Shown piece by piece: positions 46,811 to 60,221 of a stretch of 64,000 bases of DNA. The notes under the pieces were generated by a model, which was given only the letters and a program-made list of their open reading frames with translations, made no database searches and had not been told where the DNA came from. Both the position numbers and the translations under genes were made by a program. Positions within the stretch are counted from its first letter, which is position 1; each line of letters opens with the position of its first letter. Source of the DNA: Planctomycetota bacterium (GTDB lineage: Bacteria > Planctomycetota > GCA-002687715 > CAIWVZ01); assembly GCA_044222185.1 (NCBI GenBank), contig JBGANV010000003.1, forward strand, positions 672,001 to 736,000, in the 5' to 3' direction.

Positions 46811-48289
46811 TCACGGCTCGATGGGCGTGATCTTCATCGACCAGTGGAATCGATCGAAGTAGACGTTCTTCCCATCGCACTCGACCTCGCCGCGCTGGAA
46901 GTCGACGGTGTCGCTGCGAAGCGACGGCTTGGGCGGATTCAGCGGGACGCCGTGATCCGAATTCGCGATCAAGCGGAAGTGATCCAGGCCGCCGAAGTAG
47001 AAGTCGCGAACCTTGCGTCGCGAGGCGTCGTCGAGCGTCGCTGCGTAGACGGCCATGTAGGGATCGACCGGACACCAGCCTTGTCCGTCGATCCACATCT
47101 CGGCCCAGTCGTGCATGGTCTCGTTGCCCGGCCACGGCGCCCAACCAGATTGCCACCGCGCGGGGATCCCGTTCATCCTGCAGAGCGTGATGAAGAGCAA
47201 CGCCGCCTCGCCGCAATCGCCGTAGCGACACGCGACGACCTTCTCCGGGATGCACGGGATCGTGGAGTACTCGCGCGCGAAGCTGTATTTCACCTCATCG
47301 CCGATCCAGTCGTAGATGCGGCGCGCGAGCGCTCGCTTGTCCGCCGTGCCCTTCGCGAGTTCTTCGGACAGGGCCCGGATCGGCGAGGAGAACACGACGT
47401 GGGGCGGGGCCTCGGCGAGGAACCGGGCCCGCTCCGCATCGGAGATTGGTGCCACCGTCCGATCCTTGCCGGCAAATGGAGCGACTGCCCGCGCCGTGTA
47501 TCGATAGGTCGCCGAGAACGTCGTCTCCTCGTCTTCGACTGCGGGGCGTTCCATGTAGAGCGCGCGCATGGGGGCGTCGACGGGCTCGACCCCGTAGAAC
47601 ATGGGCGCCGTCTTCATGACGACGCCCGGCTCCTGGTGAGGCAGCGCTCGCGGGAAGGGCATCCAGCACCGTACCGTCTTGCCCTCCGGCGTCGCCGATG
47701 GATCGACACGGATCGTCATCGACACCTCGTAGGTCGCCGGCAGCACTTCGCGGCGCCCCGTCCGCTCGGCCTCCTGGGCGACCGCGTCGATGTGGGCGAG
47801 GATCCGCCCCTTGAGCGTGTCCGGAGCTGGGTGCACGCGGCGCGCCGCGAGCTCCGGGTAGCGGAAGAAGAGGTTGCTCCGGCTGCTGTTCGCGTATCGG
47901 CGCTGACCGTCGATCATGCGCGCGTCGAATCGGCCCTCCCGATCGAAGCGGTCGAATTCCTCGGCACTGAAGTCGCGGACGGCGTCCTTCAACTGCGCGA
48001 GGAGGTCGTCGCGCGTGAGCTTGTAATCGCCCCGGATCCGCCGCACCACGTCGAGATCGTCCTCGACGCTCTTGCGCATCCCGGCTGGCGCGTGGGCGCC
48101 GACGGCATCGAGCCACGCCTGGCCCTTGACCTCGGCCTCGCGGAAGGCGCCGGTTGCTGCGATCTCCACGATCGCCGGTCGCGTCGGTCGTGACTCCTGT
48201 CCGTGCGCGACGGTCGAATGGACGACGAGACAGGCGAATGCGATCGCCGCGCTCCGGGCCAGGCGCGTCGCGAGATGAGGAACGGCCAT
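46811..48289 (-). CDS. Secreted transglutaminase-like domain protein
   Basis: Catalytic triad motifs GDCGE, HDWAE, WCPVDP; LCRMNGIPARW; DFQRGEVE; signal peptide ending AHG-Q. Confidence 0.88.
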   Translation of the reverse strand: MAVPHLATRLARSAAIAFACLVVHSTVAHGQESRPTRPAIVEIAATGAFREAEVKGQAWLDAVGAHAPAGMRKSVEDDLDVVRRIRGDYKLTRDDLLAQLKDAVRDFSAEEFDRFDREGRFDARMIDGQRRYANSSRSNLFFRYPELAARRVHPAPDTLKGRILAHIDAVAQEAERTGRREVLPATYEVSMTIRVDPSATPEGKTVRCWMPFPRALPHQEPGVVMKTAPMFYGVEPVDAPMRALYMERPAVEDEETTFSATYRYTARAVAPFAGKDRTVAPISDAERARFLAEAPPHVVFSSPIRALSEELAKGTADKRALARRIYDWIGDEVKYSFAREYSTIPCIPEKVVACRYGDCGEAALLFITLCRMNGIPARWQSGWAPWPGNETMHDWAEMWIDGQGWCPVDPYMAVYAATLDDASRRKVRDFYFGGLDHFRLIANSDHGVPLNPPKPSLRSDTVDFQRGEVECDGKNVYFDRFHWSMKITPIEP

Positions 48290-49972: not shown

Positions 49973-50317
49973 AAGCGGATCCTCAGTCAGACGTGGATTC
50001 ACGACGACGAGATGTGGAACTTCGTACGCCGCGACTTTGCGGGGATCGTACCACCCGAAAAACACGCGGTCGGGGATATGTCCCATTGATCGAAAACTCG
50101 ACGACGAAATGACGCGTGCCGGAAAAATCGTCCGCGCGTGAAGAAACCCGCGGGCAGAGATCGAGGCGTTCGAACTCGTTGCGCCGCGCAGGGCGCCGTG
50201 TCGTCGGCGGGCGCACGTCGACCAAGGCTCGTTCGCGATCGTGCGGATTCATCGCCTTTCGAACTCCGCCGGAGCTGCGAGCATGCGGGCCGCGGCTCCT
50301 CTCGCGCCGCATGCACC

Positions 50318-51088
50318 ATGGGCCTCTTCTCCTTCGCATCCAACGGTCTTCGCAGGCTGAACCGCCGCCACGTCTTCGGTCGGATCACGACTGAGTGTGA
50401 CCTCAGACTGTCGTTCGAGGCCCACCACGAGGACGTTGCGCTCCTCGAGCAGGTGTTCGTCGAGCGCGTCTATTCCGACTGGTTTCCCCATCGGCGCACG
50501 GCGACGATCGTCGACATCGGAGCCCACAAGGGCTTCTTCACCCTGTTTGCCGCGCGGCACGCGGCTCCCGATTCGCGGCTGTTCGCCATCGAGCCGTCGC
50601 CGGGAAACCTGACCCAGCTCCGCACGAACCTCGCCGCGAACGGCCTTTCGCACGTCGCCGTCCTCGACGTCGCCGTCGGGGCCGAGGACGGTCAGACGCG
50701 GCTCCACCTCGGCCCCAGCGAGAACCACTCGATCTTCCCCGATCACACGGCGCGACTTCGGCGCGCGTCGTCGACGGTCAGCACGCCCGTGGAGATGGTG
50801 ACGCTGCGCACCGTCCTCGACCGGTGCGACGTGGATCACGTCGACTTCCTGAAGCTCGACTGCGAGGGCTCCGAGTATCCGATCCTGCTCTCGGCCGATG
50901 CCGCGACGCTCGGCCGCATCGACGTCATCTCACTGGAATTCCACGACACCGGGAAGCCGGGGTGGACCGGGCGTGACCTCGCCGAGCACCTGGAGCGTTC
51001 GCGATTCCGAGTCGTTCGCTTTGCACACGGCGCGACGTGGATCGACAACGACTACGGCCGCATCATCGCCGTTCGCGACCGCCACTGA
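50318..51088 (+). CDS. FkbM family methyltransferase
   Basis: IVDIGAHKGFF, FAIEPSPGN, VDFLKLDCEGSEY, LEFH. Start uncertain. Confidence 0.88.
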   Translation: MGLFSFASNGLRRLNRRHVFGRITTECDLRLSFEAHHEDVALLEQVFVERVYSDWFPHRRTATIVDIGAHKGFFTLFAARHAAPDSRLFAIEPSPGNLTQLRTNLAANGLSHVAVLDVAVGAEDGQTRLHLGPSENHSIFPDHTARLRRASSTVSTPVEMVTLRTVLDRCDVDHVDFLKLDCEGSEYPILLSADAATLGRIDVISLEFHDTGKPGWTGRDLAEHLERSRFRVVRFAHGATWIDNDYGRIIAVRDRH

Positions 51089-51105: not shown

Positions 51106-52143
51106 TCACTCCGCGCGACGGGCGAACAGCAATCGCACGGAAATCCCCGACGACGCCTCGGCCTCGTTCACCAGATCGGATGCGAGGATGCCCCCGCAGA
51201 GCGAATATGGCGCACGGGGCGCCGTGAACGTGATCCCGGCTCGGCAGCGGACGGACCCGCCGATCGCTGCGACGAACGGGATGACGACGGGATCCAGCCC
51301 GCTGACGGCCGCATACTCCGACGACTCCGGCCCGAACCACGCGATCTTCTTCACGTCGATGAGGACCTGTGGTGGAGTGAACAAGCTCAGTCCCGCATCG
51401 ATCACCGAGATCTTGCCGATGGCCGCCTCGACGAACCGGGTCTTCAACTCCTTCGAGAGGAGCCTCGCCGAGAACAGGCGTTTCACTCCGCGCAGCCACG
51501 CGGATTGCGTCTTCTCGAACGTCGATCCGTCGCCGCGCCAACCCTGGACCACTCGATCGAGCCGCTCCGCTACGCGCATCTGCGGGCCGACGCTCGCATG
51601 CGGGCCTCGCCCGGCCGGAAGCTCGACGGCACCAAGTGCGAGAAGCTCGCGGTACCGCTCGTAGTTGCTCGCTGCCAGGTCGGCGCGCTTCGCGGTCCGC
51701 ACGACCGACTCGAGCGTCTGGCCATTCGAATCGAAGAGCGTCATGCGAACGCTGACCGAGGATCCATCGTCGGGCTCGCGCGGGCGTGAGTCGGCCTCGG
51801 TCGCCGGATCGACGACCTCGGCCGACACGAACCAGGTCTCGCGCCGCTCACCGCGCGTGAGCTGGAGGCCGACGCCGACGGCATCGCCGACTCTCAGGCC
51901 ATCCTCCGATGGGCGTGCGAACTGGGCTTCGAATGCGGCGGGGCGAGGTCCCGCCAGCTCTCCACCGGGGACGAACGACGACGTCACCGGGTGTTCCGGC
52001 AAGTCCATCACGTCGACTGCGCAGCCGCCGACGATCGAAACAGCCGCGAGCAAGACCGCGAGGATCGAGCATGTACCGAGTCGCTGCACGAGATGAATCC
52101 TTCGTCGCTCCGCGGACAGCATACCGATTCGGACGCCGTCCAT
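51106..52143 (-). CDS. Hypothetical lipoprotein
   Basis: Lipobox SILAVLLAAVSIVGG-C; co-oriented 51 bp after the HlyD gene. Start uncertain. Confidence 0.6.
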   Translation of the reverse strand: MDGVRIGMLSAERRRIHLVQRLGTCSILAVLLAAVSIVGGCAVDVMDLPEHPVTSSFVPGGELAGPRPAAFEAQFARPSEDGLRVGDAVGVGLQLTRGERRETWFVSAEVVDPATEADSRPREPDDGSSVSVRMTLFDSNGQTLESVVRTAKRADLAASNYERYRELLALGAVELPAGRGPHASVGPQMRVAERLDRVVQGWRGDGSTFEKTQSAWLRGVKRLFSARLLSKELKTRFVEAAIGKISVIDAGLSLFTPPQVLIDVKKIAWFGPESSEYAAVSGLDPVVIPFVAAIGGSVRCRAGITFTAPRAPYSLCGGILASDLVNEAEASSGISVRLLFARRAE

Positions 52144-52194
52144 GGCAGCACCGGAGCGGGGCCAGGCATCGCCGGTTGGGCGGCGAATGGGACC

Positions 52195-53346
52195 TCAGGG
52201 AACGAAGCGCACGTGCACAACCTCGCCGGGTACGAGCCCGAGCTCCGGATCGGGCAGGATCAGAACAGGGCGCGCGAACTCGGGGCGATTTCGGTCGCGC
52301 CACAGCCGCTCGGGCAGACGCGCGATCTGAGGCCCCATCGCCGGCCTCGCCGCCAACGAGGCGTGAACGCGGCCGCCCCGCCGCACGATCTCCACCTTCG
52401 TCGCGGAATCGGGTAACGCCTCGCCTTCGGGAATGAACGCTTCGATGCCGTCCGCGCGCTCACCCAAGACGCACGCGACGCGCTGCCCGTCCGCCACGGT
52501 CTGCCCGCGCAACACCGGCAGCTCGGTGATTCGGCCCGTGACCGGAGTGCGGATGATCAGCCGCCGCCGCTCCAGTTCGATCTGGTTGAGCCTGGCGCGC
52601 TCGACGAGGACCTGTTCCTCGAACGCGCGCAGCACCGCCGGTTGATCGATCCCGCCAACGAGACCTTCGAAGCGCTTGCGGCGCGACTCGGCGGCCGCAC
52701 ACTCGGCCTGATTCTCCTTCAGCGCCTCGGCCCGGGCGGCCAGGCGTCGATCGAACACCTGGCGACGCATGAGGAGGTCGTCGACGTCGGCACGACTGAC
52801 GACTCCGGGCGTGGCGAGAGCCTGCGTTCGTTCGAGTTGAACGCGAAGGCGCTCGATCTCCGCGCGATCCGCCTCCATTTCCGTTTCGATCGACCGCGTC
52901 GCGAGACGAAGCCGGCTCTCCGTATCGAAGAACCGCTGGAGCTCTGCGGCGTGGTCGGTGGCGGCCTGGCGCGACTCGGCATGCATCCGCGCCTGCTCGG
53001 CGGCGGCCGCGGCCGCGAGTTGCTCGATGGTCGCTCGCGCCGTCGCGGCCCGCGCGTCGAGTTCCGCCTCGTCGAGCACGACGATCACGTCGCCGGCCTG
53101 CACTCGATCGAAGAGCGATACCCGGACGTCCGTGATCGCCCCGGCAACGGGGGCCGTGATCTCGCAGCGCGCGCTTCGGACCTCCCCCACGAACGCCACC
53201 GCCGGCGAGCGCATCCCGATCATCCGGAACGCCGCCACCGCGGCGGCAACCCAGACGACGAACACGACCGGACCGCGAGCGAGGTCACCGAGTCGCTGTC
53301 CGAGCGGCGTGGATACGGTTCGCGCGTGTCCCCGATCGGTGATCAC
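52195..53346 (-). CDS. HlyD-family periplasmic adaptor (membrane fusion protein)
   Basis: N-terminal TM; lipoyl halves EITAPVAGAITDVRVSLFDRVQAGDVIVVLD and IRTPVTGRITEL...GQTV flanking a long coiled coil; GLVPGE end. Confidence 0.88.
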   Translation of the reverse strand: MITDRGHARTVSTPLGQRLGDLARGPVVFVVWVAAAVAAFRMIGMRSPAVAFVGEVRSARCEITAPVAGAITDVRVSLFDRVQAGDVIVVLDEAELDARAATARATIEQLAAAAAAEQARMHAESRQAATDHAAELQRFFDTESRLRLATRSIETEMEADRAEIERLRVQLERTQALATPGVVSRADVDDLLMRRQVFDRRLAARAEALKENQAECAAAESRRKRFEGLVGGIDQPAVLRAFEEQVLVERARLNQIELERRRLIIRTPVTGRITELPVLRGQTVADGQRVACVLGERADGIEAFIPEGEALPDSATKVEIVRRGGRVHASLAARPAMGPQIARLPERLWRDRNRPEFARPVLILPDPELGLVPGEVVHVRFVP

Positions 53347-53349
53347 TCT

Positions 53350-54039
53350 TCAGGTCTCCGCGAGATCGTCGTGCAGTACGAAGGCCACGCGACCACGATC
53401 GTCGAGCGACTGGAGCTCCACGGCGAAGTCGTCGCCCCGCCGTCGATCGCGCAGTCGTACCTGATACACGTACTCCACCACGCCGTCGCCGTGCCGGCTC
53501 GACAGTCGCTTGGCAGCCAGGCAGTGTCGGCGCAGGACGGCCGGCAGGACCTCCACGGCCGCCGGTGCCTGGAACCGGCACGTCAGATGCCCGTCGAAGC
53601 GACCCCGATTGCCGAAATCGACGACGTTCAGGTACGTGGTGACGGCGACCATGATCACCGCGCCCGGGACGGCTGCGTCGTACCGCTGCGAACCGCAAGC
53701 CATTCCGAGGACGAGCGTCGTGAAGACGAACACGGTGTCGCGCGTGTCCTTGAGCACGTTGCGGAACCGGACGAGGGCCAGGGCGCCGATCAACCCGAAC
53801 GCCGTGACGAGGCTGTTGCCGATCACGAACATCACGAGTGCGACGATCATCGTCATCAGCACCAGCGACTGCGCGAATGCACGCGAGTAGGACAGGCCCG
53901 AGTGCGTGCGCGTGTACGTCCACGACAGGAGCTGGCCGATCACGAACGACATGAGCACGGCTGGGATGAGCGTGGTGACACCGAACTCGGGCGTCTCGTG
54001 AACGCCGGGGTACGAGAGAATCCGACTGAGCTCATCCAT
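53350..54039 (-). CDS. DUF4956 membrane protein (MgtC/SapB-like TM region plus soluble C-terminal domain)
   Basis: YTRTHSGLSYSRAFAQSL, VIGNSLVTAFGLIGALALVRFRNVLKDTRDTVFVF, GMACG. Start overlaps the VTC stop by 8 nt. Confidence 0.9.
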   Translation of the reverse strand: MDELSRILSYPGVHETPEFGVTTLIPAVLMSFVIGQLLSWTYTRTHSGLSYSRAFAQSLVLMTMIVALVMFVIGNSLVTAFGLIGALALVRFRNVLKDTRDTVFVFTTLVLGMACGSQRYDAAVPGAVIMVAVTTYLNVVDFGNRGRFDGHLTCRFQAPAAVEVLPAVLRRHCLAAKRLSSRHGDGVVEYVYQVRLRDRRRGDDFAVELQSLDDRGRVAFVLHDDLAET

Positions 54040-54859
54040 GTTCGGCCAGCACCTCGGTTCGCGACGCCACCTTCGGCACGAGGTCCGGCGCACGCCGCGC
54101 ACCTTCCGTCTCGACACGACGGTGGCCGAGCATCCCCCGTCTCCTCGCGTCTTCGACGCAGAGGACGTACTTCGCCACCGACTCCCGCTGCAACTCGAAC
54201 TGGCGAACGAGGGCCAGCCCCCAGGATGGGAGCCGCTCCGTGAACTTGAACTCCAACACGACGCCGGGGAGGCGGATCGGCATCCATCCATCACCCCCCA
54301 ACCGGGTCTGCGGAGACGTGGTGAGGCTGTAGGAAAGCTCGGAGTCGAACGTGACGCGCAGCGGCGCCGAGTCCAGGCCTTCGTACGCCTCGCGCTCGTA
54401 GCGCACGCACAGGACCGGTGCGGCCGCGATGCGCGCCCGTTTCTCCATGAAGTCCGCGACCGCCGCATGGTCGCGAGACCGCGTCTGCGGAGTGAATCCG
54501 ACCACGAGCTCCGCCGCCTCGGACTTCGGCATCGGGGCGCGGGCCTTCGTGACGATGCCGTTCATGCGCGCCTTGACCTCCGAGAACACGGGCGACGCCG
54601 GATCGTCGGAGTAGCTGCGAACTCGGAGCTTGAACCGCGTCTTCTCGCCGTGGACGGTCGCTCGCAGCAGCGCGAAGTCCGCGCTGTCGAGATACAGACT
54701 GCTGATGACGTAGCGGTGATCAGGGGCCACCAGCGAGTACCGATCGAGGGTCACGAACGGCGCGATGAAGCGCCGAAGCGTGGGCAGGAGTCCGGGCGAC
54801 ACGATGTATTTGCACTCGTACCGCGAGGTCAGCGTCCGGTCGAACGATGGCGAGGTCAT
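54032..54859 (-). CDS. VTC domain (polyphosphate polymerase, CYTH/TTM fold) protein
   Basis: RYECKY, YVISSLYLDS, RFKLRVRSY, SEVKAR, YEREAY, LRVTFD, VVLEFKF, KY. Confidence 0.9.
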   Translation of the reverse strand: MTSPSFDRTLTSRYECKYIVSPGLLPTLRRFIAPFVTLDRYSLVAPDHRYVISSLYLDSADFALLRATVHGEKTRFKLRVRSYSDDPASPVFSEVKARMNGIVTKARAPMPKSEAAELVVGFTPQTRSRDHAAVADFMEKRARIAAAPVLCVRYEREAYEGLDSAPLRVTFDSELSYSLTTSPQTRLGGDGWMPIRLPGVVLEFKFTERLPSWGLALVRQFELQRESVAKYVLCVEDARRRGMLGHRRVETEGARRAPDLVPKVASRTEVLAEHG

Positions 54860-54892
54860 GCTGATTCCAGGCAGGCGTGGAGGTTCGCGGCG

Positions 54893-56317
54893 TCACTGCG
54901 TCACGGGAATGGCGCAGGTCGTGAGGGCGAACGCCGGGAGGTCGAGCGCCTGGAACGCGACGCCGAACCCCGGCGGCAGCGTGGGGACGGCGAACGTGAA
55001 CTGGGCGTAACCCTGCGAGCTCACGGGCACCGGCGGCAGCGCGGTGATGAGGCCCCACAGCGGATCGACGAAGTCGTCCGTGTAGAGCTCCGGGAAGCCG
55101 CCCGGAACGCTCACGGCCGGGACGTAGGGAACGACGACCGTGCGCGGCGTGTATCCGCCGAGTGCCGTGACCTGCGCGAGATTCGCCATCAGCAGCACGC
55201 TCCCGTTCGGAGATGCGCCGCCGACGCCGAGGACGAGCGACCCCGGCGTCACGAGTTCCGTGTCATGGATGTTCAGGAGCCGCGGCGCCGTCGACAGCGA
55301 TCCGGCACGGACCGCGATCCCCGTCACCGTGTGCACCGCGCCACCGTCGAAGTTGGTCGGCCCGAGCCCCAGCGCGGGGCCGCCGCTGAGTATCACTCCG
55401 TTGCGCGAAGCGATGGATCCACCGGTACGCGTGCTGCAGATGACCGCCGTCGACGAACCATCTCCGGAGAGCCAGAGGTTCGGAATCGTGAACCCCGTTC
55501 CCGCGACGACGACCGTCCCACCGGCGGGGTCGATCTCGAGCCCGTCGAGGTCCCCCACGACTCCGATGCCGGCGTTCGCGAAGTAGACGTTCACGTCGGC
55601 CTCGCGCAGGACGATCTGGGCCGCCCCGGGCGTCACGAACGCCACCGTACCGTCGGGGTTGGCGACGTATGCCGCGGCGGGAAGTCGCACGACACCACCA
55701 TCCTCCACGGTCACGCCGTTCACGGTCTGCGGGAGCGTCATGCTCCAGTAGATGTCACCGTTCGACGCGACGCAGATCCCGTCGACGTCGATGTCGAGCC
55801 CCGGAGTCGCCATGGCCGAGGCGATCTGAACGCGGGTGATGAAGTACGTGACGCCTCCGGCGGGACGCAGGCGCACGACGTCGCCGTCGTCGATCGGAGA
55901 CACCACGCGCCCCTGCCCGCCGTGATCGTGGGAGAACGACAGGTAGAAGTCGAAGATCGTCGGCGGGTTCTGCGTTCCAGGGACGAACTGGATGGCGTCG
56001 ATCCTTCCGACGACTCCTTCGGTGTAGAGGCCGTCGCCGTCGTCATCGCCGAAGTAGGCCGCCCAGGTCGCTTTCGTCGCGCAGCCGTACGCGGTGAATG
56101 GCGTCGTCGCCGACGGAGACACCACCATCACGGACTCGTTGCCGAAGATCGCCCCGGGATTTCCTGGGAACAGAACCGAGCCGCCCGCGCCGGAGGCCGC
56201 GACCTCTTTCCCGTCCGTCGAGAACGCCAACGTGAATGGCGTCTGGGCCGGGACCGATCGGCAGAGCCCGAGGAGTGTGATGGTGAGTGCGGCCAGCGTG
56301 GTTCGTGTGCGCGTCAT
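54893..56317 (-). CDS. Secreted protein with acidic propeller-like repeats and the shared C-terminal domain
   Basis: Signal peptide ending VPA-Q; repeats RIDAI...FYLSF, DVDGI...IYWS, DLDGL...LWLSG; C-terminus PVSSQGYAQFTFAVPTLPPGFGVAFQALD. Confidence 0.72.
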   Translation of the reverse strand: MTRTRTTLAALTITLLGLCRSVPAQTPFTLAFSTDGKEVAASGAGGSVLFPGNPGAIFGNESVMVVSPSATTPFTAYGCATKATWAAYFGDDDGDGLYTEGVVGRIDAIQFVPGTQNPPTIFDFYLSFSHDHGGQGRVVSPIDDGDVVRLRPAGGVTYFITRVQIASAMATPGLDIDVDGICVASNGDIYWSMTLPQTVNGVTVEDGGVVRLPAAAYVANPDGTVAFVTPGAAQIVLREADVNVYFANAGIGVVGDLDGLEIDPAGGTVVVAGTGFTIPNLWLSGDGSSTAVICSTRTGGSIASRNGVILSGGPALGLGPTNFDGGAVHTVTGIAVRAGSLSTAPRLLNIHDTELVTPGSLVLGVGGASPNGSVLLMANLAQVTALGGYTPRTVVVPYVPAVSVPGGFPELYTDDFVDPLWGLITALPPVPVSSQGYAQFTFAVPTLPPGFGVAFQALDLPAFALTTCAIPVTQ

Positions 56318-56391
56318 TTCAGTCGACCTTGGTGAGGGGAACACGCGAGGTTGCGGGCGGACCGAGCGGCGCATGGGCGCCGCTCCAAACC

Positions 56392-58794
56392 TCATGGGCA
56401 CAAGCGGACGTCGAGAGCGCGGCTCGCGCGCGCGCTCGCGCCGTCGGGTGCACCGACCTGGAGGAAGAGGTGCAGTCCCGCGAGTGCAGGGTCGCTCGGG
56501 AGCGTGACGGGGAGCACCGCCGCGCCCGCACCGTCCAACGGAAGGCTGAGCCACAGGAGCGACGTCGGATCCACGAGCAGGGTCACGGGCGTGCCTGCGA
56601 CCGGGATGTGCGCCCCTGCGCCCGAAGCGAACAGGAGTGCGAAGCCGGATGCCGGACCATTCCCCACTTGGAATTGGACGTTCGTCCCCACACCAGCGGT
56701 GCCGGACATCGTGAACGTCATGACGTGCGACGTGGGTGCAAGCGCCGTGTAAGCCCTCGCCCCGCACGCCGTCAGCTCGTTCACCGCACCCGGCGTCGGC
56801 GTCGGGAACGACACGAAGGGAAGACCGCCGTCGTAAAGGCGTCCCGTGGAGACGTTCGCGACCTGGGCGCCGAACGCGATCGAATCCAAGAGCGTCACAC
56901 CGTCGGATGCAAACAGCGAAACGCTCTCACCCCCGGCGGACAGTTTGAAATTCGCGTGGAGCGGTCCCTGGATGGCGTCCTCGTCGCACCAGACGAGCAG
57001 CGTCCCGTTGGCTGGAAGTGTCTGGCCCGCCGGCAACTGGAACTTGGTCGGGTTGAGCAGATCGTCCGTCAGGTACATCCCACCGACGGTGACGGGCGCG
57101 CTGGACGCGTTGTACAGCTCGACGTAGTCCTCGAACTCACCGAACCCGTCCGTGATCACCGACGTGTTCTGAGCCAGGAGTTCGTTGATGCGCGCGGGCG
57201 AGGTCCCCGTTGGCCATGCCACCTGGAACGCGTTCGCGTGGTGCTCGGCGGTCTTTGGAGCAAAGGTCAGTCGCCCGGCAGCAGTGGCAGCCGCGGCGTA
57301 ATACTCGACGAGCGTGCCGGGCGGGACCGCCGGCAGCGTGACGCCGAACGTGCCGTCGCCCGGGGCCCCGTCGCAGTGATTGCCGTCGTCGAACATGGGT
57401 GTCGACAAGAACGGACCTGCGGTCCGGTAGAAGAGCGTGACGGTGCTCGCGAGGCTCGACGCCTGCACCGTGAAGCAGACCGACTGCTGAGGCGTCGGGG
57501 CCGCGGGCGAATGATTCAGGTTCGTCAGCGTGGCTCGCGTCCCCGCGAACTCCGGTTGCGACAGAAGGTAGGTGCGACGGCCCGTGATCAGGGGCTGAAG
57601 TCCCGGGACCGTCGTGCTTCCGCCCCCCGGCCCGCCGCCACCGGTCACCGTCACCGGCGCCGTCACGTTCGTGTTGAACTGCGCGTACGTGTAGATCTTC
57701 TTGGGATCGGCGAGCACGTCGGCGTCGATCATGGCGTGATACTGGTTGATGAGCGGTCCGAGGACGTTCCAATCCCACGTGTCCTCGAGCATCGTCCGGT
57801 AGTGCGCGATGTACCGCTGGTTCCAGTCCGCGAAGGTGAGCGTCTTCGAGAACGCCGGCCGCGTGGCGAGTGTCGTCTGGTACCACATGCTGAGCGTCGT
57901 GCTGCCGGCAAGAGCCTCGTTCAGGTCGAACGGGAACATGTGGAACTGGCCGAACGTCGTGTCGTGATAGAGAAAGTGGTCCTTGCCGGATTCGAGGTAG
58001 CTGTCGGTGTTCGTCGTGATGCTCATGCACGCGGCATACCGATAGAACTGGTCCACGCTGAAGATCGTCGGCACCGTCGCCTGGATCAGCGAGTTCGGCG
58101 TGTTGTTGAGCAGGTTGCACAATTGCATGAGGTCCGTGCCGTCACCCTGCTTGGCCTGGTACGCGTCCAGATAGGACTGGACGACGCTCCCGAGCCACGT
58201 CAACGCGCAGCGGCCGTTCTGGAATCCGCCCGTCGTCGGGAACCCGCGATAACGATTTCCGTCGTTCGTGCGGAACCACTGCCCGGCCCATTTCGCATTC
58301 GGCTGCTGGACGTTGATGTACACACCCCAGAACTGGTTGTTGATGTAGAGCCGCACGAAGTTGCACCGCGGTGCCGGACCGTACTGCCTCATGATGTAGT
58401 AGGTCAGGAACTCGCGAATGAACGTGGGGTCGTGGAACCCGTTGTTGAGGTTGATGTGGTCGTACCCGAGGAGGTCCTGTCCAGGCACGAAGCTGTCGGT
58501 CTTGATGTTCAACCCGACCTTTTGCGACCCGGCGGGGAGCTGCGTGTAGGACGTGTTTCCGCGGATGCGCACCCCCACGTTCGGAAGCGCGATCCCGTCG
58601 ACCGTCAGCGTTCCCGGGATCTCCACCTCGGAGACGTAGTTCTGCTGCAGCAGCGTGAACCAGTTCGACTGGGCGAACGTCAGGTAGAAGGTGCGGTAGG
58701 TGGTCGGGTCGTACAGGTCGGGCGCCTGGCCGGCGGCGAACCCCGCGGCAAGCGTCATCGAGAGACCTATCGTTGCGACGATCGGGTGTTTCAT
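56392..58794 (-). CDS. Secreted CotH-family kinase with lamin-tail domain and the shared C-terminal domain
   Basis: Signal peptide AAG-Q; NVGVRIRGNTS, DPTFIRE, LYINNQFWGVY, NTDSY, FPFDLNE; MFDDGNHCDGAPGDGTFG; LTD INELLAQN...FEDYVELYN...YLTDD...HANFKLSAGGE...PTPG. Confidence 0.9.
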   Translation of the reverse strand: MKHPIVATIGLSMTLAAGFAAGQAPDLYDPTTYRTFYLTFAQSNWFTLLQQNYVSEVEIPGTLTVDGIALPNVGVRIRGNTSYTQLPAGSQKVGLNIKTDSFVPGQDLLGYDHINLNNGFHDPTFIREFLTYYIMRQYGPAPRCNFVRLYINNQFWGVYINVQQPNAKWAGQWFRTNDGNRYRGFPTTGGFQNGRCALTWLGSVVQSYLDAYQAKQGDGTDLMQLCNLLNNTPNSLIQATVPTIFSVDQFYRYAACMSITTNTDSYLESGKDHFLYHDTTFGQFHMFPFDLNEALAGSTTLSMWYQTTLATRPAFSKTLTFADWNQRYIAHYRTMLEDTWDWNVLGPLINQYHAMIDADVLADPKKIYTYAQFNTNVTAPVTVTGGGGPGGGSTTVPGLQPLITGRRTYLLSQPEFAGTRATLTNLNHSPAAPTPQQSVCFTVQASSLASTVTLFYRTAGPFLSTPMFDDGNHCDGAPGDGTFGVTLPAVPPGTLVEYYAAAATAAGRLTFAPKTAEHHANAFQVAWPTGTSPARINELLAQNTSVITDGFGEFEDYVELYNASSAPVTVGGMYLTDDLLNPTKFQLPAGQTLPANGTLLVWCDEDAIQGPLHANFKLSAGGESVSLFASDGVTLLDSIAFGAQVANVSTGRLYDGGLPFVSFPTPTPGAVNELTACGARAYTALAPTSHVMTFTMSGTAGVGTNVQFQVGNGPASGFALLFASGAGAHIPVAGTPVTLLVDPTSLLWLSLPLDGAGAAVLPVTLPSDPALAGLHLFLQVGAPDGASARASRALDVRLCP

Positions 58795-59078
58795 GGGAGC
58801 CATCTCCGAAGGCGAGTCCGCGGGGCCTTGCCGGGCATGACTCAGCCGGCGGACCGTTTTCAGCAGCCCTTCACGTGATTTCGCCGTTCACTCGACGGTG
58901 CCCGGATGACGGGCCCGACCTTCGATCGGACCGACCGCCCGTCCCGCGACGCCCTGACTCGTCGCCGCAACTCGTTTTGACACCAGGACATGTTTCCGGC
59001 GCGACGACATCGCGCCGGGGAGCGGGAGCGTCGCCCGTCCGTAGCACCGCGAAGGGCCGAGCCCGCCGGAGAACCGCC

Positions 59079-60221
59079 ATGACCCAGACTCGCCGTGACT
59101 TCCTTCGCACCACCGCCGCCGCCGCGCTCGTTGGCGTGCTGCCGTCGACTTCAGCCCGCCCAGTCCGCCAGGACTCGGCGCCGACCAAGGGTCTCAAGAT
59201 CCTCATCCTCGGCGGAACGAACTTCCTCGGCCCAGCCTGTGTGGAAGCCGCGCGGGCGAGAGGTCACACCGTCACCCTCTTCAACCGCGGCAAGCACAAC
59301 CCGGACTGGTTCCCCGACGTCGAGAAGCTCCACGGCGATCGTGATCCGAAGAAGGACAAGGGCCTCTCGGCATTGAAGGACCGCAAGTGGGACGCCGTTC
59401 TCGACAACTCGGGCTATTACCCGCGGACCGTGAAGGCCTCCGCGGAGTTGCTCGCGCCGAACGTCGGGCACTACACGTTCGTCTCGACGCTCTCCGTCTA
59501 CGCGGACACGGAAACCGAGAACCAGGACGAGACGGGCAAGCTGCTCACGATCGCCGATCCGACCGTCGAGACGATGGGCAAGGAATTCGAGAACTACGGC
59601 CCGCTGAAGGCGCTCTGCGAGAAGGCCGCGGAGGAGGCCATGCCGGGCCGAGTCGCCGTCGTACGGCCGACGTACATCGTCGGGCCTGGAGACACGAGCG
59701 ACCGGTTCACCTATTGGCCGGCGCGGTTCGCCCGCGGCGGCGACGTCCTCGTGCCGGGCACTCCGCAGGATCCGGTTCAGATCATCGACGTGCGCGACCT
59801 CGCTGAATGGATGATTCGACTCGCCGAGGCGAAGACGGCCGGGGTCTTCAACGCACTCGGTCCGGTGCCGCCGCTGAAGTGGGGAACCCTCGTCGAGGCA
59901 TGCCAGGCGGCGGGCAACAAGACGGCGAAACCCATCTGGGTCAACGCCGAGTTCATGGCGAAGTTCATCAAGCCTGACGATGACGTCGGCATTCCGATCT
60001 GGATCCCGCCCGTCGGCAAGACGAAGGGTTTCCACACGTTCAGTGCCGCTCGATCCGTGAAGGCAGGCCTCACCTACCGTCCCGTGGCAACCACGGTGAA
60101 CGACACGCTGAAGTGGTGGAACAGCCAAACCGAGGAGCGCCGTGCGAAGCCGCGTGCCGGACTCACTCCCGAGAAGGAGACGGAGATCCTCACGGCCTGG
60201 GCGAAGTCGCAGGCGAAGTAG
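59079..60221 (+). CDS. Tat-signal NAD-dependent epimerase/dehydratase (isoflavone reductase-like SDR)
   Basis: TRRDFL Tat motif; ILILGGTNFLG, LFNRG, YGPLKALCE, RPTYIVGPGD, DRFTYW, QIIDVRDL. Confidence 0.88.
   Translation: MTQTRRDFLRTTAAAALVGVLPSTSARPVRQDSAPTKGLKILILGGTNFLGPACVEAARARGHTVTLFNRGKHNPDWFPDVEKLHGDRDPKKDKGLSALKDRKWDAVLDNSGYYPRTVKASAELLAPNVGHYTFVSTLSVYADTETENQDETGKLLTIADPTVETMGKEFENYGPLKALCEKAAEEAMPGRVAVVRPTYIVGPGDTSDRFTYWPARFARGGDVLVPGTPQDPVQIIDVRDLAEWMIRLAEAKTAGVFNALGPVPPLKWGTLVEACQAAGNKTAKPIWVNAEFMAKFIKPDDDVGIPIWIPPVGKTKGFHTFSAARSVKAGLTYRPVATTVNDTLKWWNSQTEERRAKPRAGLTPEKETEILTAWAKSQAK

Follow-up and report, generated by a model that had tools for sequence, protein, structure and literature searches.

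In the eukaryotic VTC complex, which in yeast is built from Vtc4 and Vtc1 with either Vtc3 or Vtc2 (structures 3g3q, 7ytj and 8i6v), polyphosphate (polyP) is made by a catalytic domain of the family PF09359, and polymerisation is coupled to passage through a membrane channel into the vacuole lumen. PMC9911596 describes a positively charged belt that links the exit of the tunnel with the entrance of the channel, and names Vtc4 R264A/R266A/E426N as the inactive form used for the cryo-electron microscopy structure. Related gene sets occur in bacteria: PMC7112168 lists cotH, polyP polymerase and DUF4956 accessory genes at Gram-positive pel loci, PMC12345266 reports lowered Pel and aggregation in CotH and MgtC-like mutants of Streptococcus intermedius (SIR_1592-1594), and PMC2879425 places VTC, membrane protein and CotH genes in Clostridium perfringens NELoc-2. 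The present study concerns a block of six genes that links the same three families in a planctomycete, within a window of 64,000 nucleotides (the whole stretch of DNA analysed, G000:C7:672001-736000, where G000 is the window's own genome; L-numbers below are locus labels). This block adds to the trio a gene for an EmrA-like periplasmic adaptor, and its most likely role is that of a synthase-coupled polyP exporter serving secreted CotH kinases.

The monoderm trios stand beside a polysaccharide operon and lack an adaptor or outer-membrane gene, whereas the window module has a predicted envelope-spanning extension and lacks pel genes. An initial annotation of the window had noted a linkage of VTC, DUF4956 and CotH for which no function had been demonstrated, and this is correct (PMC7112168 and PMC12345266). 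The CotH-polyP polymerase-DUF4956 trio is already in print, while the extension by an adaptor and TolC was not found in print: searches of the literature, with subscription journals outside their coverage, returned neither a linkage of an adaptor or TolC to VTC-DUF4956 nor a demonstrated function. The six genes are as follows.

56392-58794, minus strand: exported CotH-family kinase, 800 amino acids (Pfam CotH and LTD)
54893-56317, minus strand: secreted protein, 474 amino acids, family unassigned, possibly a beta-propeller (no Pfam or NCBIfam match)
54032-54859, minus strand: soluble VTC-domain triphosphate-tunnel enzyme, 275 amino acids, Vtc4-like candidate polyP polymerase (Pfam VTC)
53350-54039, minus strand: DUF4956 predicted inner-membrane protein, 229 amino acids (Pfam DUF4956)
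52195-53346, minus strand: EmrA-like periplasmic adaptor, 383 amino acids (Pfam HlyD_3 and Biotin_lipoyl_2)
51106-52143, minus strand: orphan open reading frame (ORF), 345 amino acids, N-terminus lipobox-like by eye (third-position GC 0.81, no family match)

From the CotH gene to the sixth gene, the spacings are 74 bp, 33 bp, an 8-nucleotide overlap, 3 bp and 51 bp; the overlap joins the stop of VTC to the start of DUF4956, and the adaptor starts 3 bp past DUF4956. Coordinates and start and stop codons agree exactly with the six co-oriented genes and gaps described in the initial annotation, and the family names it had given to CotH, VTC, DUF4956 and HlyD are borne out by Pfam matches above the cut-offs. 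All six ORFs have a third-position GC of 0.81-0.87 in DNA of 67% GC, and are thus coding-like. A consensus scan of the block found no promoter-like sites, and terminator-like sites were no commoner than in shuffled sequence; this result does not delimit one transcript, and neither supports nor refutes a single operon.

Conservation of the gene order was examined in a sample of 201 genomes drawn evenly across the phylum, 52 of which contained a VTC domain. Loci were compared at 60 of the 62 VTC places outside the window's own genome, from 51 other VTC-positive genomes, leaving out the fragmentary matches G059:C49 and G045:C99, and were scanned with profiles built from the alignments of this analysis. 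DUF4956 lies beside VTC at 47 of the 60 loci, several of the misses being contig ends, and the two genes are an almost obligate adjacent pair. A HlyD-type adaptor directly after DUF4956 on the same strand was found at 11 of the 60. A second set comprised the 80 nearest relatives, loci in species genomes that were retrieved by alignment of adaptor-linked DUF4956 proteins. VTC, then DUF4956, then the adaptor stand on one strand at all 80 of these loci, a count that measures stability inside one clade and not generality, because the query was built from adaptor-linked DUF4956; nine of the 80 are labelled Myxococcales, Deltaproteobacteria, Acidobacteriota or Sumerlaeota. The conserved core is a three-gene module of VTC, DUF4956 and EmrA-like adaptor, found in a distinct clade. 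The earlier suggestion that HlyD is linked to VTC and DUF4956 holds for a conserved third member in that clade and does not extend to most of the sampled loci. It is extremely improbable that the six genes are adjacent by chance and have no common function. Although the sixth gene and the 474-residue protein are poorly or not conserved, and no single transcript is marked out by the promoter and terminator scan, there is overlap or almost no space between the coding regions, and the order and strand of VTC-DUF4956-adaptor are kept in 80 of 80 relatives from several phyla, which refutes chance adjacency of the three core genes. The window's own genome carries a further copy of this core.

L003:12152-14832 (G000:C7, about 24 kb beyond the window end): second VTC-DUF4956-adaptor triad, no CotH nearby

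The two triads are 28-38% identical, with the adaptors 28% identical over their full length. Genes for an M50 peptidase and a GDSL lipase lie upstream of the second triad.

The genes that follow the core bear on whether it spans the envelope. Once repeats and cut loci had been set aside, 86 unique triads remained, including the window triad and the second triad of the genome; L134, L146, L153, L166 and L171, which repeat phylum-sample loci, were counted once, and L148 and L168, where a contig end cuts the adaptor so that it falls below the score threshold, stand outside the 86. Most of what stands right after the adaptor belongs to a single large ORF family, of which five representatives match the outer-membrane efflux protein family OEP (PF02321) at 1e-19 to 1e-29. 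By profile search, a TolC-like OEP gene is present in 27 of the 86 triads, always directly after the adaptor, and this strengthens the idea of a trans-envelope system. When the ORFs lying no more than 4 kb from the 86 triads, 824 in all, were clustered, they yielded giant CotH/LTD proteins (53 loci), OEP (24 loci) and housekeeping genes, in addition to several clusters with no Pfam match, some of them probably antisense shadows; no ABC, RND or MFS cluster was found among these 824 ORFs, and no MFS gene was found in the window block. Judged from sequence, trans-envelope export of polyP by the VTC-DUF4956-adaptor core has about an even chance of being its function. Two single loci depart from the common layout: at L154:8606-9124 a partial second DUF4956-like ORF lies between DUF4956 and the adaptor, and at L046:12071-15619 the gene past the adaptor encodes a PSCyt1/PSCyt2/PSD1 cytochrome-like planctomycete protein and not an OEP.

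The window adaptor matches HlyD_3 (32.0 bits, cut-off 22.2) and Biotin_lipoyl_2 (31.7 bits, cut-off 29.8), while its match to TIGR00998, the EmrA subfamily (1.4e-17, 63.6 bits), the nearest in NCBIfam, lies far below the subfamily cut-off of 390.8. Its AlphaFold2 model, with a mean predicted local distance difference test (pLDDT) score of 90.3, has a membrane helix at residues 26-45, a lipoyl domain, an 85-residue hairpin arm and a beta-barrel, and lacks a membrane-proximal domain. The closest structures in a Foldseek search were EmrA in EmrAB-TolC (8zal, 1.5e-16) and EmrA 4tko (1.8e-16), followed by MacA, AcrA and MexA, over a range of 1e-16 to 1e-10. As modelled, the adaptor resembles EmrA, which serves a pump that has no periplasmic domain. 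The module thus shares with the EmrAB-TolC and MacAB-TolC pumps an adaptor of EmrA architecture and, in the 27 relatives noted above, a TolC-family gene after it, and differs from them in having DUF4956 and a triphosphate-tunnel enzyme instead of an MFS, ABC or RND transporter; the OEP gene that a tripartite efflux system has in its operon is absent from the window locus. About 12 OEP genes lie elsewhere in the window genome, one of them in an operon that offers a direct comparison.

L182:7056-12499 (G000:C1): OEP-adaptor-ABC-MacB operon, whose OEP alone in this genome strongly matches the triad-linked OEP clade

A gene for a Ser/Thr kinase that has TPR repeats adjoins this operon. Where the OEP-adaptor-ABC-MacB operon has its ATPase-permease pair, the window has VTC and DUF4956. 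This placement would suit a novel tripartite pump whose cargo is not polyP but, for example, a peptide, a cation or a small anion, and in which VTC would hydrolyse ATP or triphosphate as the motor driving DUF4956, as the ATPase of MacB does for its permease; the weak likeness of DUF4956 to MgtC and its ACT-like ligand-binding domain would suit it too, and many triphosphate-tunnel enzymes of the CYTH/TTM superfamily are hydrolases. Nevertheless, such a pump is unlikely, since among the VTC subunits in the PDB the polymerase Vtc4 is the one closest to the VTC profile, since an exported phosphate compound accounts more readily for the strong genome-level coupling to secreted CotH kinases, and since no TTM-driven transporter is known to us.

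The window VTC matches Pfam PF09359 at 7.3e-33 (114.5 bits against a cut-off of 23). A search of the PDB with the single window sequence gave no match; a profile of 46 bacterial VTC relatives matched Vtc4 (3g3q) at 1e-27, Vtc2 at 4e-17 and Vtc3 at 1e-13. On this profile alignment, counted by hand, window residues K17, R79, R81, E203, K205 and K230 correspond to Vtc4 K200, R264, R266, E426, K428 and K458. Among 82 VTC relatives, R79, R81, E203 and K205 are invariant and K17 and K230 nearly so, and the three positions whose replacement inactivates Vtc4 are all kept in the window protein. The window VTC can be regarded as a Vtc4-like candidate polyP polymerase. It consists of the VTC domain alone, with neither the SPX sensor of the eukaryotic complex nor a fused membrane domain; its membrane part is the separate DUF4956 protein, with five predicted helices and an ACT-like domain, which we take to be distinct from the Vtc1-type domain. 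The window genome also encodes PPK1 and PPK2, and the VTC protein would therefore not be its sole route to polyP.

The DUF4956 protein matches PF16316 at 1e-12 (48.5 bits, cut-off 30.6), while its scores against the MgtC families lie below their cut-offs (17.7 bits against 31.4 for PF02308, and 18.5 against 214 for NCBIfam NF007431). Its AlphaFold2 model (mean pLDDT 81.7) predicts helices at residues 21-45, 53-73, 78-91, 99-116 and 120-139, followed by a beta-alpha-beta-beta-alpha-beta domain that matches ACT folds with Z scores of 8.4-9.2. The most conserved loops are residues 45-52 and 91-101, the second of which carries the motif R91-F-R93-N-x-x-K97-D-T-R100-D, with R91, R93, K97 and R100 invariant or nearly so. 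If the ACT domain is cytoplasmic, these two loops would also face the cytoplasm, where a polyanion would enter. The layout is similar to that of the MgtC family, which likewise has a small multi-helix membrane domain and an ACT-like cytoplasmic domain, although the similarity is below the family cut-offs; we know of no MgtC protein that acts as a channel or as a polymerase partner.

This likeness to MgtC raises the possibility that VTC and DUF4956 make or sense polyP at the inner membrane for internal homeostasis of phosphate, magnesium or energy, with the adaptor stabilising or regulating them and with no export. The membrane-plus-ACT layout that DUF4956 has in common with MgtC-like proteins (PMC12345266) is consistent with such a role. 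Furthermore, 36 of the 49 adaptor-less loci in this diderm phylum keep the VTC-DUF4956 pair, so that the adaptor is not required for the job that the pair performs, and neither triad copy in the window genome adjoins an outer-membrane gene. Against an internal role stand the TolC-like gene that comes next to the adaptor in 27 of the 86 triads, the full EmrA TolC-docking architecture of the adaptor model, the presence of PPK1 and PPK2, which already serve internal polyP, and the exported appearance of the partner CotH and LTD proteins. We consider it quite unlikely that the module serves internal homeostasis.

The co-occurrence of VTC and CotH predicted by the initial annotation was found in the phylum sample, where the 201 genomes were distributed as follows.

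VTC present, CotH present: 46 genomes
VTC present, CotH absent: 6 genomes
VTC absent, CotH present: 6 genomes
VTC absent, CotH absent: 143 genomes

CotH is thus found in 52 of the 201 genomes, and in 46 of 52 VTC-positive compared with 6 of 149 VTC-negative genomes, a contrast that overstates the coupling because the genomes, being related, are not independent data points. CotH occurs somewhere in each of the 10 sampled genomes that have an adaptor-type triad, and it is present at 36 of the 60 sampled VTC loci. In a control set of 14 genomes, both VTC and DUF4956 were found in Bacteroides thetaiotaomicron, Corynebacterium glutamicum and Methanosarcina acetivorans, and CotH was found in these three VTC-positive genomes and in Bacillus subtilis. 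Tandem arrays of three to four short CotH genes (about 440 amino acids) stand beside adaptor-less VTC at L070:11964-17286, L072:10256-14241 and L087:6496-11882. At L068:9271-11159, in the complete single-contig genome G132, which has no CotH match, both VTC and DUF4956 are fragmented and may be decaying.

The window CotH itself matches Pfam CotH (PF08757) at 6.4e-38 (131.5 bits, cut-off 23.8) and LTD, the lamin-tail domain, at 5.2e-11; CotH covers residues 75-378 and LTD residues 534-640, followed by a C-terminal domain of 139 residues. In a comparison with Bacillus cereus CotH 5jd9 (E 3.3e-4), the window residues D264 and D290 align with aspartates of 5jd9, positions that are unmapped to B. 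subtilis numbering; the catalytic aspartates of B. subtilis CotH are D228 and D251 (PMC7821199). By eye, the N-termini of CotH and of the 474-residue protein are signal-peptide-like. The 139-residue C-terminal domain recurs in other CotH/LTD proteins, its profile matching 12 ORFs in related loci. The initial annotation had held that this domain is shared with the 474-residue protein, a candidate domain that was rejected by three comparisons: BLASTP between the two proteins gave a best E of 0.96, the C-terminal profile scored 0-3 bits on the 474-residue protein with filters off, and hhalign gave a probability of 0.7 with E 0.076 over 37 columns, leaving a 37-column resemblance of a terminal motif. 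With the shared domain falls the main argument for the 474-residue protein as a substrate of CotH.

The 474-residue protein has no match in Pfam or NCBIfam; in the Atlas it matches clusters of hypothetical planctomycete proteins at 0.95-0.97 and, more weakly, NHL, FG-GAP and Kelch clusters, and it is possibly a beta-propeller. Its homologues stand between CotH and VTC only at L062 and L083, in the window's own order, with 46-47% identity, and among the loci examined the protein is present in only three. This distribution suggests a lineage-specific partner of the window CotH. A paralogue lies outside the window and away from VTC and CotH genes at G000:C7:200086-201660 (E 8e-108 with a profile built in this analysis).

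At the two loci L062:8698-14207 and L083:367-6005, the CotH proteins are 58% and the 474-residue proteins 46-47% identical to those of the window, in the same order before VTC-DUF4956, but the VTC and DUF4956 proteins are only about 29% identical to the window's. Adaptor-linked VTC-DUF4956 pairs of other families are closer to the window pair, at 40-58% identity. More broadly, the same-family and same-order relatives of the window carry another, adaptor-less clade of VTC-DUF4956. A quick maximum-likelihood tree was built from 61 VTC domains, 13 of them adaptor-linked, and a single state change suffices to explain these 13. Support for their clade is modest: the split that exactly delimits them has 48, and a clade of 14 rows, which also takes in L074, cut by a contig end, has 81. 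These identities imply replacement of the module at the site of the CotH-474-residue pair. Both types of VTC module would then do the same job for CotH, because the orthologous CotH-474-residue pair is served by either.

A different emphasis, which was that of the initial annotation as a whole, places CotH at the centre: the kinase would phosphorylate surface proteins or glycans, the 474-residue protein would be its substrate or cofactor, and VTC-DUF4956, with or without the adaptor, would only deliver the donor. The co-occurrence of CotH and VTC across genomes, and the retention of the CotH-474-residue pair while the VTC module behind it was swapped, are in keeping with this emphasis, as is the phenotype of the S. 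intermedius CotH and MgtC-like mutants, which have less Pel and less aggregation (PMC12345266). However, the shared-domain argument for a substrate fails, the 474-residue protein occurs in only three of the loci examined, neither a CotH nor an LTD gene lies near 41 of the 86 adaptor-type loci, and the window genome's second triad stands alone. In addition, no kinase of the CotH fold that uses polyP as a donor is known to us, and we regard this CotH-centred arrangement as somewhat unlikely.

Under the preferred reading of a synthase-coupled exporter, the soluble Vtc4-like tunnel enzyme would use ATP to polymerise phosphate on the cytoplasmic side of the inner membrane and pass the chain to an oligomer of DUF4956, whose conserved cytoplasmic loops, rich in arginine and lysine, would form the entrance. 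The membrane-anchored adaptor with its long hairpin would span the periplasm to a TolC-type duct encoded elsewhere in the window genome. PolyP would leave the cell during its synthesis, in the way that synthase-dependent secretion of polysaccharides and the yeast VTC complex couple the two; the logic of polymerisation coupled to channel passage is proposed here by analogy with yeast, and the destination would be the cell exterior, across two membranes, instead of the vacuole lumen. At the surface, the exported CotH would act on or with the polymer, which may serve as a phosphoryl donor where ATP is lacking. The analysis shows the gene order with its conservation, the retained catalytic residues, the folds and the phyletic coupling with CotH; we infer polyP synthesis, contacts among VTC, DUF4956 and the adaptor, export, and any use of polyP by CotH. 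The complete proposal, in which the pump of a tripartite system gives way to a Vtc4-like polymerase with a DUF4956 channel and exported polyP is the donor or substrate of secreted CotH kinases, is put forward tentatively, as a possibility and not as an expectation.

Several points weigh against the exporter reading, among them the limits already attached to the nearest-relative count, the genome table and the adaptor clade, and the retention of the VTC-DUF4956 pair at adaptor-less loci. Retained tunnel residues are equally compatible with a polymerase, a triphosphatase or some other activity of triphosphate-tunnel enzymes. No solved structural match to the membrane part of DUF4956 was found, its proposed pore is hypothetical, and a search for longer VTC relatives found no fused VTC-DUF4956 proteins, which is weak evidence. 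An apparent VTC-DUF4956 fusion at L113:4172-5725 was rejected as a scaffold gap, the XX in its translation coming from a run of N. In the fetched flanks of the 86 adaptor-type loci, CotH was found at 35, LTD alone at 10 and neither at 41. No OEP gene lies beside the window triad or the second triad of the genome, and the OEP of this genome that scores highest against the triad-linked OEP clade (324 bits, the next being 39) belongs to the conventional OEP-adaptor-ABC-MacB operon described above. Finally, biochemical data on bacterial VTC, DUF4956 or the adaptor were not found in the searchable literature, subscription journals being outside its coverage.

The sixth gene appears to be no part of this system. 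The initial annotation had included it as a lipoprotein, but neither the 140 related loci nor the rest of its own genome contain a homologue, and it has no match in Pfam, NCBIfam or the Atlas; a suspected counterpart, the ORF downstream of the second triad, proved unrelated. The block is bounded by plus-strand genes for an FkbM methyltransferase (50138-51088) and an epimerase with a twin-arginine translocation (TAT) signal (58773-60221), and a gene for a transglutaminase-like protein lies a few kb downstream (window positions 46811-48289, minus strand).

To the previously described trio, the window contributes two paralogous triads in one genome, an exchange of the VTC module behind orthologous CotH and 474-residue genes, the cross-tabulation of VTC and CotH, and a contrast with the genome's own MacAB-type operon. 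To our knowledge, no bacterial polyP exporter has been described, and no secreted bacterial kinase has an identified extracellular phosphoryl donor. If the proposal is true, it would explain how polyP gets to bacterial surfaces, would assign a role to the bacterial VTC domain and to DUF4956, both of them widespread families, and would describe a tripartite system in which a polymer synthase, and not a pump, is the inner-membrane engine. It would also offer an answer to the question of the donor of secreted CotH kinases, and this answer would reach beyond the planctomycetes, because the CotH-VTC-DUF4956 trio is also present in gut Bacteroides and in streptococcal Pel and C. perfringens loci. 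The module would then represent an undescribed bacterial secretion route, through which diderms would gain ATP-independent phosphorylation of proteins or glycans outside the cytoplasm.

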